In this document: in pieces, positions 1,908 to 62,400 of the stretch
Layout: each line of letters begins with the position of its first letter
How positions within the stretch are numbered: position 1 is the stretch's first letter
Origin: Scenedesmus sp. PABB004
Taxonomy: Eukaryota
Assembly (NCBI GenBank): GCA_014905635.1
Contig: JABVCE010000008.1
Location: 620,001-684,000 of the forward strand
Direction: 5' to 3'
DNA length: 64,000 bases
Translations under genes and position numbers: made by a program
The notes under the pieces: generated by a model
What the model was told of the DNA's origin: nothing
Database searches by the model: none
The model's input: only the letters and a program-made list of their open reading frames with translations

Positions 1908-3702
1908 ATGGGCAGAGATGATGAGGGCGCCGCGCCCGCGGCCGCCGCAGACGCGCCGGCGGCGGCGGCAGCAGCCGCTGCGCCCGCGCCGGCGGCGGCC
2001 AAGCCGCCGCGCAAGAACCGGGGCAACCTGCGCAAGCGCGCGCCCGCCGACGGCGACGGCGGCGACGGCGGCGGCGGCGACGACGACGGCACGTCGGTCG
2101 TGCGCAAGGCCAAGGCGCAGCGCGGCGACCCGCTCGCGTTTTCGACCAAGAAGGAGGCTGGCGCCGACGGCCACGGCGTGACGTTTGCGAGCTCCGCGGC
2201 GCCGCTCGCGGCCAAGGACGAGAGCGCCACGCGCGCGCTGGAGACGGAGACCGAGTTTGACCGCGACGCGCGGTGCGCCCGCGGCGCCGAGCGGCGCCGA
2301 GCGGCGGCGGCGGGGCCTGGCGCGCATGCATGCAAATCCATGCATGGGTGCACGCCGCTCGCATAGAGCAGCGGCGGCTCGCTCACGACCCCGCCGCCGT
2401 CGCCGCCGCCGCCGCCGCAGGGCGCAGCGCGAGCGGCTGCTCGCGGCGAGCACGGCGGGGCCGACCTCGGACAACAAGTACCGGTGGGCTGCCCAGCGCC
2501 GCGGCAGCGGGACGGCGGCAGCGGGGCGGCGGCGCACGGCGCGAGCGCGGCCGCGGCGGCCGCCTCACCGCGCCGCGCCTCTCTGCGCCGCCCGTGCCCC
2601 GCCCGCGTGCAGGGGCATGAACAGCTACGTCGACTACTCAACCGGCATGCGGCGCGAGGCCAACGTGGGCAGCGAAAAGGGCGGCGGCGCGCACGGACCG
2701 CTGCGCGGCAACGTCTTTGTCCGCACCACCGCGCGGTGCGCCGCGCCGCGCCGCGCCGCGCCGCGCCGCGCCGCCGCCCCCCGCGTGCCCGCCCGCCCGC
2801 CTGCTGCCGCCGCGCCCCGCGGCTCACCCCGCGTCCGCGTCCGCCGGCCCCTGCCTGCTTGGCCCCCAACCTGCCACAGGTTTGACTACCAGCCGGACGT
2901 GTGCAAGGACTACAAGGAGACCGGGTTCTGCTCCTACGGCGACTCCTGCAAGTTCATGCACGACCGCGGCGACTACAAGAGCGGCTGGGAGCTCGAGGCG
3001 GTGCGCACGCGGCGCCCGCCGCGGCGCGGCGCGGCGCGGCGCGGGGCGGCGGGCGCGGGGGCGGCAGGGGCGCGCCCGCGCGCGCGGCCGACCCGCCGCC
3101 CCGCGCCGCGCCGCGCCGCAGGAGTGGGAGGCCGAGCAGAAGCGGCGGCAGGAGGCGCTGACCAAGGGCTGGAACCCGGACGGCGAGGACGAGGAGGAGG
3201 AGCCGGCGGAGGAGGAGGACGAGCTGCCGTTTGCCTGCTACATCTGCAGGCGCGCCGCGCCGCCGGGCTGCTGCCGCGGCGCGGCCGGGCCGCGCTCTCG
3301 CCCGCCTGCGCACCCAACAGCTGCGCACCTGACGCCGCCGCCGCCGCCGCCGCCGCCGCCGCCGCCGCCGGCGCCGCCGCCGCCGCCGGCGCCGCAGGGA
3401 GCCGTGGGCCGAGTGCAAGAGCGACCCGGTGGTCACGCGCTGCAAACACTACTTTTGCGAGGCCTGCGCGCTCAAGTGGGGCGCCGCGGCTGCATCGCAG
3501 CCGCCGCCAGCACCGCCGCCCCGGTGCACACCTCACCGACCCCGCCCGCCGCCCGCCGCGCGCCGCCGCGGCGCGCAGGCGCAACGCCAAGACGGGCAAG
3601 TGTGCTGCGTGCGACCAGCCGACGCAGGGCATCTTCAACGTCGCTGCGGACGTGGTGAAGAAGCTTAAAAAGGCCAAGGACGCCGGCGGCGGCGCGGGCT
3701 GA
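1908..3702 (+). CDS. CWC24: Spliceosomal CCCH zinc finger + RING protein (RNF113A/Cwc24), 7 exons
   Basis: Spliced product contains [69 protein letters not shown] and [16 protein letters not shown]...[18 protein letters not shown]...[15 protein letters not shown]. One GC donor at 3250. Confidence 0.95.
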
Positions 3703-3719
3703 GCCGGGGGCGTGCCGCT

Positions 3720-3724
3720 TGTAA
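3720..3724 (+). promoter_or_regulatory. TGTAA chlorophyte polyadenylation signal for CWC24
   Basis: TGTAA 18 nt after stop; the motif is rare in this GC background. Confidence 0.75.
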
Positions 3725-59229: not shown

Positions 59230-59477
59230 CGCACGCGCCGCGGCGGCGCCGGTGCGACTGCTGCTGTCGTCGCAGGGCCCGGCTGCGAGCGCCCGCACGG
59301 GAGTGGAGTGTGCGACAGTGAGGGGCCGGGCGGGAGCGCACAGCGCGGCGCCGCCGCGCGGTTTGGCCGGCGCTGGGCCCCGACCACACGCCCTGGCGCG
59401 CGGGGCGGCGCGGTGCGGACGACGGCGCCGTGCAGTGCTCTTGCAAGACTGAGACGCTCGCCGCCAGCGCGCGCGCG

Positions 59478-62400
59478 TCACGCGGGCAGCCCGCCCCTCG
59501 GCCCCGCGGCCGCCTCCAGCACCAGCCGCTCCGCCTGCGCCTTGAGCGCCGCCAGCGGCGGCAGGCAGCGCTGCAGCGCGGCGCGGCCGGCGTCGGCGTC
59601 GCCGCCGCCGGCAAAGCCCGGCCACGCGATGCCGCCGCCGCCGTCGCTGCCCGGCGCGTCGCCGCCGCCGCCGCCCGCCGCCAGCGCGCCGCCCGCGGCC
59701 GCCTGGCGCGCCACGCAGCCGAGCTTGTGGACCAGCGAGTAGGCCTGGCGCAGCACGCCGCCGCCGCCGGCGCCGCCGCTGCTCTGCTGCTGCGCCGCGC
59801 GCTGCCGCTGCGCCTGCGCCTCCAGCGCCTCGGCCACCTGCGGGGCGCGGCGGCGCGGGCGCTCGCCATGAGAGCGCGCCCGCGCGAGGGCGGCGGCGGT
59901 CCCTCGCCGCGCCGTGCACCTCGAGCGCGCGGCGGGTGACGCCGTCCGGCAGGCCCGCCGCGCGCGCGAGGAGCACCCCATAGTGCACGCCGCCGGCGCC
60001 GCCGCCCGCGTCGCCGCCCGCCGCGGCCGCCGGCGCGACGGTCCAGGCGTAGCGGATGTCGTCAGAATCCACGCTGACCTGGCGGCGCCGTGCGCGCGCC
60101 GCCGGTGCGCGCAGTGAGCGCACGTGGTCAGGTCAGCGCGCGCCGCCGCGGGCCCGCCCGCCCCTTGCTGCGGGCACCGTTGCATGCGGCGCACGCCGGC
60201 CAGCACCTGCATGCGCCACAGTTGCGCGCTGGGGTAGATGCCGGCCAGCTCCTCCAGCTGCCTGCGAGCGGGGGGCCAGGGCGCGTGGCGTCGGCGGCGG
60301 CACCGGGGGCACGTGCGCGCGCCGCGACGCGGCGGCCGCCGCGCCTGAAGTGCGTGGCCAGCAGCGTGTGCGCGCCCAGCGCCAGCAGGCACTCTGCCAT
60401 GGCCCACGACAGCGCGACGCCGTCGGCGGTCGAGGTCGCCCGGCCGAGCTCGTCGATCAGCACCAGGCTGCGCGGCCCCGCCCTGCGCACGGCGGCACGC
60501 GGCCGCGGGGCTGGGCGGCGCGCGCCAGCCGCCGCGAGCGGGCCGGCCGCGCGGCCGAGGCCGCGCCGCGCCCGGCCGCCGGGCGCTCGCGCCGCGCGAG
60601 CCCGGCGCGCCCCGTCTCACCGCGCGAGCAGGTGGGCCATGTCGGCCATCTCCACCACAAAGCTGCTGGCGTTGGCCTCGATCGTGTCGGCGCTGCCCAC
60701 GCGCGTGTGCAGCGCCTCGTACGGGCTGCGGCGCGGCGCGGCGCGGCGCGGCGCCCCTCGGCCTCGCTCCCGGCCCCGCGATGCACGGCGCGCGCGCCGG
60801 CGGCACTCGCCTGAGCGCCATGAATCTGGCGGGCACGAAGCAGCCGACCTGCGCGAGCAGCACCAGCAGCGCCGCCGTCTTGAGCAGCGTCGACTTGCCG
60901 CTCATGTTTGGCCCCGCCACGACCGCGAGCGGGCAGGACGGACCCACGTACACGTCGTTGGGCTGCGCGCCGCCGGGCTGCGCCTGCGCCCGCACGCGGC
61001 GGGCGCGCGGCGGGGGCCAGTCAGGCGCCGCGCCGGTCAGCGCAGGCTGGCCGCAGCGCGCGCGCAGCTGCAGGCGCACGATGAGCAGCGGGTGGCGGCC
61101 CTTGGTGATGGCCAGCGGCCCCGACGCGCTCAGCAGCGGCCGGCAGAACTCGCCCTCGCTGCCTGCGGCGGGGCCGGCGCGGACGCCGGCGCGGGCGGCG
61201 CGGTGCCGCGGTCAGGCGCCCGACGCCGGCACGCGCGGCGCGCGCCGTACCCGCGCCGCACCCGCGACCGCATGAAAGAACGCGACCAGGAGGTCCAGCA
61301 GCGCGATGTTGTCCAGCGTGCGCAGCAGCAGCGGCATGTGCTGCAGCAGCCGCGCGACGAGGCCCTCCAGCACCTGCGGCGCGGCGCGGCGCGCGGCGCA
61401 GTCTGGCGCGTGGCGCCAAGCCGGCACGCCGCCGCCGCCGCCGCCGCCGCCGCCGCCCGCTTCGCGCTCACTGAGCAGGTGAGCATCATGCAGTCCGCCG
61501 CCGCGTCGCGCAGGCGCCTGTTGAGCGCGTTGAGCTCGTGCGTCGTCACGCACGCGGCGCCGCGGCCGCGCTTCTCGAGCACCAGGAACGCCCTGCGCGG
61601 CGGGGCGAGGCACGGCGGGCGGAGCGCGGCGCGCGTGGCATGGGCGGCCGCGAGGCGGTCGCGAGGCAGCCGCGCCGGCGCGCGCGCCCCCGCGCGCTCA
61701 CTTTGGCAGCTCCGGGGGGCCGTGCTCGGGCCCGGCCGCGCGCCCGCGCGCGCTCGCGGCCGCCGCGCTCGTGCGCGCGCCGCCCTCTGGCACGACCAGG
61801 AAGAAGCCCTTGCTGGCGCTGTACTGCACCTTGAGGCCCGCCAGGCCTGCGGCGCGGGCGCGCGCGCGCGCGCTCACGCAGGGCCGCGCGGCCGGCCGCG
61901 CCGGCGGCGCCGCCGCGGCCGCGCGCGCCCGTGCTGCTGGCGCGGTAGCCTGCGGCGAGCTCGTGGATGCTCTCGGTGAGCCGCGTGAACGTGGCGCGGC
62001 TGAGGTCGAGCAGCGAGTCCACCGCCGCGCGCACCGCAAAGCACTGCTGCAAGCGGTTGACAAACTGCGTCTTGCTTGCCTGCAGCCGGCGCGGCGCGCG
62101 GCGGGCCGGCGCGGCGGCGGGCGGCGCGCCGTCGGCGGTGTGGGCGCGCCGGGCACGGCGCGGCGCGCCGTGGTGCGCTCGGGGCCGCCTGCGCCGCGCC
62201 GCGCCTGCGCGTCGTCGTCCAACACGGCCTCCACGTCGCGCAGCAGCGCCGCGAGCGCAGGCGAGCCGAGGTTGGCGCGGATCGCCTGTCGTGGCGGCGC
62301 GGCGGCGCGGCGGCGCGGCGGCGCGGCGGTGCGGCGGCGCGGGTCGCGGCCTGCCGCGCCGCCTCCTGGCCCCCCGCCGCAGCGCCGCCGCGCCGCGCCT

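Follow-up and report, generated by a model that had tools for sequence, protein, structure and literature searches.

The window analysed here, a stretch of 64,000 nucleotides of the green alga Scenedesmus sp. PABB004 (NCBI GenBank assembly GCA_014905635.1, contig JABVCE010000008.1, positions 620,001 to 684,000, forward strand), raises the question of how often, and by what route, introns of an extremely GC-rich nuclear genome begin with GC instead of GT. Ordinary U2-type GC-AG introns account for ~1–3 % in most eukaryotes. The initial annotation of this window had listed at least 18 introns with a GC donor and had considered a changed recognition of the 5' splice site. The full 18 are not borne out by reading frames and homology; GC is the start of at least 11 U2-type introns, probably of about 15, among a total of some 100–140, and we regard it as very probable that these donors are of compositional origin and are recognized by a standard U1.

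Reading frames and homology at the GC junctions

Homologs were fetched for four genes, encoding the small subunit of acetolactate synthase (ALS), a PRP40-like protein, a member of the histone-deacetylase (HDAC) family and an MSH4-like MutS homolog, and profile hidden Markov models were built from them. The profiles were aligned to the genomic sequence with a spliced aligner that sees the donor dinucleotide and an AG acceptor and is blind to the flanks. Permitted donors were either GT only, GT and GC (the latter at a penalty of 6 half-bits), or all 16 dinucleotides (free-donor parse). Flanks were scored with a matrix trained on 31 GT donors supported by homology or annotation (threshold 5.6 bits), and read-through of putative introns was assessed with a codon model (reference values: exons +1.0, introns −0.7 bit per codon). 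Based on homolog profiles, frame logic and flank matrix, 11 sites were graded as well supported, four as probable and three as ambiguous. They are listed below (a slash marks the splice junction) and are referred to by the position of their donor.

3250..3397, plus strand: GC-AG intron in the RNF113A/CWC24-like gene, cag/GCGCGC...CGCAG/g, flank score 6.7; well supported
6341..6467, plus strand: GC-AG intron where a Big_9 Ig-like domain ends, acg/GCGCGC; probable
12097..12194, plus strand: GC-AG intron in the ALS small subunit gene, gag/GCGCGT; well supported
13762..13915, plus strand: GC-AG intron in the ALS small subunit gene, aag/GCGCGC, flank score 8.0; well supported
17871..18025, minus strand: GC-AG intron in the HDAC-family gene, cag/GCGCGG; well supported
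19993..20072, plus strand: GC-AG intron in the inositol-monophosphatase-family gene, cag/GCGCGG; well supported
23355..23437, plus strand: claimed GC-AG intron in the PRP40-like gene, WW2-FF1 linker, aag/GCGCGT; ambiguous
23522..23677, plus strand: GC-AG intron in the PRP40-like gene, start of the first FF domain, cag/GCGCGC; well supported
38426..38536, minus strand: claimed GC-AG intron in an unannotated coiled-coil-like gene, gcg/GCGCGG, flank score 2.4; ambiguous
41167..41275, plus strand: GC-AG intron in a gene without Pfam match, cag/GCGCGG; well supported, by frame logic only
51900..51995, plus strand: GC-AG intron in a TPR-like gene, cag/GCGCGC, flank score 6.7; probable
54719..54825, plus strand: GC-AG intron downstream of a subtilase domain, cag/GCGCGC, flank score 6.7; probable
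59019..59169, minus strand: GC-AG intron in the WDR82-like WD40 gene, following the first coding exon, aag/GCGCGC, flank score 8.0; well supported
60262..60344, minus strand: GC-AG intron in the MSH4-like gene, following the Walker-B exon, cag/GCGCGG; well supported
60726..60810, minus strand: GC-AG intron in MutS domain V, cag/GCGAGT; probable
61847..61928, minus strand: intron with non-GT donor in the MSH4-like gene, donor at 61928 (flank score 3.6), 61931 or 61934; ambiguous as to the exact donor
62080..62204, minus strand: GC-AG intron in the MSH4-like gene, cag/GCGCGG; well supported, homologs distant
62286..62398, minus strand: GC-AG intron in the MSH4-like gene, aag/GCGCGG; well supported, homologs distant

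At all 18 sites, the donor is a GC preceded by G and the assigned acceptor is an AG, with intron lengths of 80–156 nt; one position needs correction, the donor listed as 60345 in fact beginning at 60344. The donors nearly all read G/GCGCG as described before (17 of 18, the exception being G/GCGAGT at 60810), and G/GTGCG is confirmed as the dominant GT donor (GTGCG in 22 and GTGAG in 7 of the 31 homology-supported GT donors). In the window, GGCGCG occurs 511 times on the plus and 559 times on the minus strand (GGTGCG: 97 and 69), and the 72 copies of AGGCGCG do not exceed the Markov expectation of 82–114. Thus, the motif is uninformative unless combined with evidence from frame or homology.

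Joining the exons at these junctions restores conserved reading frames, and the flanks resemble those of donors. The free-donor parse lands on the exact GC at 12097, 13762, 18025, 23522, 60344, 62204 and 62398, with gap-free joins at all seven, and selects GT at 8 of the 9 remaining introns of the ALS and HDAC genes. Each of these seven flank-blind picks passes the threshold of 5.6 bits (chance probability ~1e-16), which is reached by 15 of the 18 claimed sites versus 129 of 27,850 GC dinucleotides (0.46 %). Forcing GT at GC sites costs 7–45 half-bits over and above the GC penalty of 6; a similar loss, typically 15–27 half-bits, results when a well-determined GT donor is banned. A GT-only parse with the codon model breaks the coding chain no more than 24 nt from 16 of the 18 sites; the two exceptions (23355 and 59169) have usable GT alternatives. 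Frame logic argues for restoration at 3250, 19993 and 41167, while the situation is unclear or frame restoration is absent at 23355, 38536 and 61928. GT is entirely absent from six of the 18 claimed introns.

In case of the ALS small subunit (13 homologs), the join at 12097 is gap-free against close homologs including a Tetradesmus protein; the GT-only model requires a 3-residue insertion and a different acceptor, and forcing GT loses 7 half-bits after the GC penalty. The join at 13762 is likewise gap-free, the GT-only model inserting 12 residues absent from all 13 homologs (loss of 16 half-bits). The free-donor parse of this gene comprises five GT donors, the two claimed GC donors and one CG located 3 nt from a GT. 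In the HDAC-family gene (free-donor parse: GT, GT, GC, GT), the join at 18025 is gap-free against 13 homologs within the conserved core past the DxDxHxGxG motif; the alternative, a GT at 17953, would insert 24 residues, and forcing GT loses 29.8 half-bits. Four deacetylase homologs of other origin (P0263, P0265, P0343 and P0293) turn into low-complexity sequence directly after the conserved '...GDGTAAIFA', which corresponds to the position of this intron, so the gene models of relatives may fail on the same donor.

The PRP40-like gene contains two claimed sites. The intron at 23522 is devoid of GT and joins '...ATKDAAKQ' to 'AFMELL...' without a gap in the alignment with the Tetradesmus homolog and a second one; the GT-only model inserts 52 residues (three homologs) at a loss of 42 half-bits, and read-through scores −0.96 bit per codon, i.e., intron-like. 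In two short open reading frames (ORFs) from other assemblies (P0241 and P0244), the start of the FF domain is uninterrupted and junk follows after '...NEYCT'; if these are genomic, the relatives would be without the 23522 intron. At 23355, located in an unconserved linker, in-frame GT donors exist at +9 nt (tgc/GTGCGG) and +42 nt (ggc/GTGCGC), and the profile alignment favours GT at 23397 with a different acceptor.

Six sites belong to the adjacent MSH4-like and WDR82-like genes. Within the MSH4-like gene, 60344, 62204 and 62398 are the exact donors in the GT+GC parse as well as in the free-donor parse. The GT alternative to 60344 (cgc/GTCGCG, with another acceptor) adds 4 residues; forcing GT at 62204 loses 16.5 half-bits, its in-frame GT alternatives having flank scores of −4.9 to −7.7; and the intron at 62398 is devoid of GT (loss of 39.9 half-bits). 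The GC join at 60810 is gap-free according to Pfam (MutS_V positions 2–38, then 39–73), and a GT at 60806, 4 nt downstream, needs a poorer acceptor. In the region of 61928, the sole in-frame GT would yield an intron of 31 nt, and the GT-only model drops the exon at a cost of 45 half-bits; the profile alignment places the donor at 61934 (gca/GCACGG) and the free-donor parse at 61931. Further candidate GC donors that had not been listed before are located at 63108/63114 (minus strand), 61766 (minus strand), 50150 (plus strand) and 40240 (minus strand), two of them stemming from the MSH4 profile alignment and two (cag/GCGCG) from an ab initio parse.

Protein search retrieved a deposited model (P0001, 1339 aa, 100 % identical, source name wdr82 [Scenedesmus sp. 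PABB004]) that maps to the window with 1339 of 1339 residues via 15 GT-AG introns and one GC-AG intron, the latter being exactly 59169. At this site, use of the GT 9 nt upstream (flank score −2.8) would remove 3 residues; a PDB search with the WDR82-like exon yielded generic WD40 matches only, which pin no junction. P0001 is a chimera of the MSH4-like and the WDR82-like genes (57316–63826, minus strand). Compared with the profile parses, it reads through several introns and omits the Walker-B exon (60345–60482); it also takes GT at 60786, adding residues absent from the GC join at 60810.

The remaining sites depend mainly on frame logic. In the RNF113A/CWC24-like gene, for which Pfam detects zf-CCCH and RING, the intron at 3250 contains no GT, and the first Cys pair of the RING and its remainder are in different frames. 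The following exon matches RNF113A residues 270–287 only from its 8th residue, so the junction is not fixed at the residue level. The intron at 19993 also lacks a GT, has no in-frame GT alternative and separates different frames; the preceding exon covers Inositol_P positions 88–124 and matches inositol monophosphatases in PDB, and the following one yielded a weak SuhB match (E = 1.4) in the PDB search that does not pin the junction. At 41167, again without GT, the upstream frame stops inside the intron and the sequence becomes coding-like again, in another frame, after CACAG, the sole in-frame GT lying 57 nt upstream with a flank score of −12. Since 3250, 19993 and 41167 combine absence of GT with a change of frame, an intron without a GT donor is unavoidable at each of them.

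The exon ending at 6340 represents Big_9 positions 43–84 of 89, and the frame changes across the gap. The sole GT within this intron lies 21 nt before the acceptor, and in-frame GT alternatives would delete 11 or 15 residues of the domain (flank scores −12.0 and −3.3); adjoining in-phase GC sites are also possible donors. The 51900 segment (96 nt) is in frame, with a read-through score of −0.83 bit per codon, and the in-frame GT at +24 nt (cgg/GTCTCG) has a flank score of −11.5 versus 6.7 for the GC. An in-frame TAG 15 nt past 54719 demands that the exon ends there, the sole GT before this stop (ggg/GTTTAG) scoring −8.4 versus 6.7 for the GC. The 38536 segment (111 nt, in frame, no GT, −0.85 bit per codon) harbours a G16 run, and the site has neither exonic AG nor homology.

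Frequency, flanks and origin of the GC donors

This one 64-kb window thus holds 11 well-supported and four probable GC donors. With 11–15 sites over the 130–140 introns that a rough first count had given for the window, the GC share plausibly amounts to ~8–11 %, or 13 % if all 18 are included. The earlier proposal that GC-AG introns are far commoner here than the ~1–2 % elsewhere is supported by evidence from homology and frame. In five genes resolved by homology or annotation, 8 well-supported GC donors are found among ~45 modelled introns.

Several points weigh against this reading. The plausible share of about 8–13 % of introns rests on a rough total, and the five genes were chosen for holding claimed sites, which biases their within-gene rate upward. 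In-frame GT alternatives exist at seven sites: 13762 (+12 aa), 18025 (+24 aa), 59169 (−3 aa), 60810, 23355, 51900 and 54719. At 60810, the profile alignment favours GT at 60806 by 3.6 half-bits, with the acceptor GTACGAG/ and a 2-residue deletion. A decoy-donor control with the 10 distant MSH4 homologs yielded gains of +99.5 for GC, +84 for CG and +70 for GG; with decoys that close, alignment of distant homologs by donor dinucleotide only is weak evidence. Filtered ab initio parses with the codon model called 36 GC donors, next to 30 CG and 21 CC. Finally, removal of the GC introns from mRNA is a prediction from genomic sequence and homology. Ab initio parses that did not model start and stop codons contained 49–79 GC donors among 175–211 introns; as a rate estimate such parses were rejected, because they over-call and accept decoys nearly as often as GC.

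The flanks bear on the origin of the GC donors. Among the 31 GT donors of the matrix, positions −1 and −2 are G in 77 % and A in 38 % of cases, respectively, and intron positions +3, +4 and +5 are G in 100 %, C in 71 % and G in 94 %. By comparison, A at −2 is present in 11 of 11 well-supported GC donors versus 12 of 31 GT donors (Fisher p = 3e-4), and G at −1 in 18 of 18 claimed GC sites versus 24 of 31; the well-supported GC donors have exon-end AG, G+3 and G+5 throughout (11 of 11). Stronger flanks are expected as compensation when a standard U1 loses the pair at +2. The previous view that GCGCGC lacks compensating strength does not hold: C at +4 is normal for local GT donors as well, so GCGCG is no weaker than GTGCG at this position, and the exon side is stronger in the GC donors. 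Since this is the usual pattern of compensation, an altered U1 or U6 is not needed. The GC donors may therefore be viewed as the T-to-C form of the local consensus AG/GTGCG, whereby mutation or fixation pressure towards GC would turn T to C at intron position +2, and the change would be tolerated where the remaining 5' splice site pairs well with a standard U1. Both this pairing and the evolutionary cause are inferred from sequence.

An alternative is that the requirement at +2 has been relaxed by helper proteins or by a change in the U1 5' end or the U6 ACAGAGA box. The high share of GC donors would agree with this, as would the deviation of the local GTGCG at +4 from the textbook consensus GTAAGT; however, exon-end AG in 11 of 11 cases together with G+3 and G+5 is what an ordinary U1 would lead one to expect, rendering altered machinery unlikely. 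Equally doubtful is its extended form, in which a shift in 5' splice-site recognition (U1 5' end, U6 ACAGAGA box or a U1-independent helper) would let GCGCG be read as well as GTGCG, with a genome-wide GC share well above 8–13 % that is still rising under GC pressure. Rfam yielded 0 matches at gathering score in the 64-kb window. U12-type (minor) introns were considered and rejected, as GCGCG and GCGAG are unlike the RTATCCTT consensus (as quoted in PMC2846911).

Even less credible is the view that all introns are GT-AG and that the apparent GC introns are lineage-specific indels or in-frame low-complexity coding sequence. It could draw on the seven in-frame GT alternatives named above and, with other acceptors, on further ones for 12097 and 60344; moreover, the segments at 23522, 51900 and 38536 are open and multiples of 3, and P0001 has GT at 15 of its 16 donors. 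Yet the introns at 3250, 19993 and 41167 are without GT and change the frame; the insertions of 3, 12, 24 and 52 residues needed at 12097, 13762, 18025 and 23522 sit in conserved cores and are absent from all aligned homologs; the segments, when read as coding, yield −0.83 to −0.96 bit per codon versus +1.0 for exons; the GT alternatives mostly have negative flank scores; and the Walker-B exon of a MutS protein is missing from P0001. That the C at +2 stems from faulty assembly or polishing of a true T, an idea suggested solely by the difficulty of a very GC-rich genome and by nothing in the analysis, is hardly conceivable, since the same T-to-C change would be needed at a dozen donors and the flanking exons align to homologs without frameshifts.

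Gene content and intron properties of the window

The GC content of the window is 77–84 % in each 2-kb bin (~80 % overall). A Pfam scan of stop-free six-frame ORFs of at least 60 aa (n = 534) revealed the following genes.

2.9–3.7 kb, plus strand: RNF113A/CWC24-like gene (CCCH and RING)
5.7–10.7 kb, plus strand: Big_9/cysteine-repeat gene
11.8–14.3 kb, plus strand: ALS small subunit
17.3–19 kb, minus strand: HDAC-family gene
19.4–20.8 kb, plus strand: inositol-monophosphatase-family gene
22–26.6 kb, plus strand: PRP40-like gene (WW/FF)
57.3–59.2 kb, minus strand: WD40 gene (WDR82-like)
59.5–63.8 kb, minus strand: MutS homolog (MSH4-like)
Further genes by Pfam: CCT-motif, FAST-kinase-like, RUN-domain, TPR and subtilase

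The matched families include CCT and Wound_ind, both of the plant lineage. The window, which represents an intron-dense eukaryotic gene array, comes from the nucleus of a green alga with extremely high GC content. In a table of PMC12571836, the genome of Scenedesmus sp. PABB004 is given as 39.8 Mb with 78.5 % GC and 7,092 genes, and the other previously sequenced relatives tabulated beside it have 13,429–17,867 genes. Among lower-GC relatives, Tetradesmus obliquus has ~57 % GC.

The 45 introns modelled in the five resolved genes are short (57–423 nt, mostly 76–214 nt), and most of their acceptors read GCAG/. A branch-point-like CTNAY motif is present in only 15 of the 45, and the motif was therefore dropped as a criterion. 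The last intron of the RNF113A-like gene, judged by eye, may measure only ~55 nt (3524–3578, plus strand, GTGCAC to CGCAG), with only one of the 45 modelled introns being shorter. Runs of ~13–16 G are located within or beside putative introns at 38510–38530 (minus strand) and 6555–6570 (plus strand).

GC-AG introns in other algae and implications for annotation

As in ordinary U2-type GC-AG introns, those of the window combine GC at +1/+2 and an AG acceptor with the otherwise normal donor consensus of the organism. In Chlamydomonas reinhardtii, expressed sequence tags comprise 532 GC-AG versus 25,053 GT-AG introns, i.e., 2.1 % (Table 2, PMC2846911); the frequency in the window is roughly 4–6 times higher. 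In Emiliania huxleyi, GC donors form 56 % of 241 manually mapped junctions (9 GC junctions verified by RT-PCR) at a genomic GC content of 65 %; its authors attribute the use of GC-AG to high genomic GC and report that GT-biased models were mispredicted (PMC4028052). Shared with Emiliania are a GC-rich algal nuclear genome, common GC donors and the canonical AG acceptor. Unlike the GC majority in Emiliania, the GC donors described here constitute a minority, estimated at ~8–13 %, at 78.5 % GC and in a green alga, and are predicted from sequence.

A share similar to that of the window was reported for predicted introns of the pelagophytes Aureococcus anophagefferens (~14–17 %) and Pelagomonas calceolata (~14 %), which the authors tie to GC content, the lower-GC relative Aureoumbra having 0.32 % (bioRxiv 10.1101/2024.10.30.620910). 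These two are stramenopiles with less than one intron per gene, whereas the window belongs to a chlorophycean and has 4 to ~16 introns per resolved gene. A limited literature search found no published report of elevated GC-AG usage in green algae or in Scenedesmus sp. PABB004. The pattern as such is already known from other GC-rich algae, to which Scenedesmus would add a green alga.

With a nuclear genome that ranks among the most GC-rich reported, this green alga would join the few lineages with common GC donors, which supports the view that splice sites can be reshaped in their usage by pressure on base composition. The main immediate value is practical, as deposited gene models mishandle GC introns: models favouring GT fail here, exemplified by the fusion, intron read-through and loss of the Walker-B exon in P0001. 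Comparative work on the PABB004 genome first requires a transcript-guided re-annotation that allows GC-AG introns.

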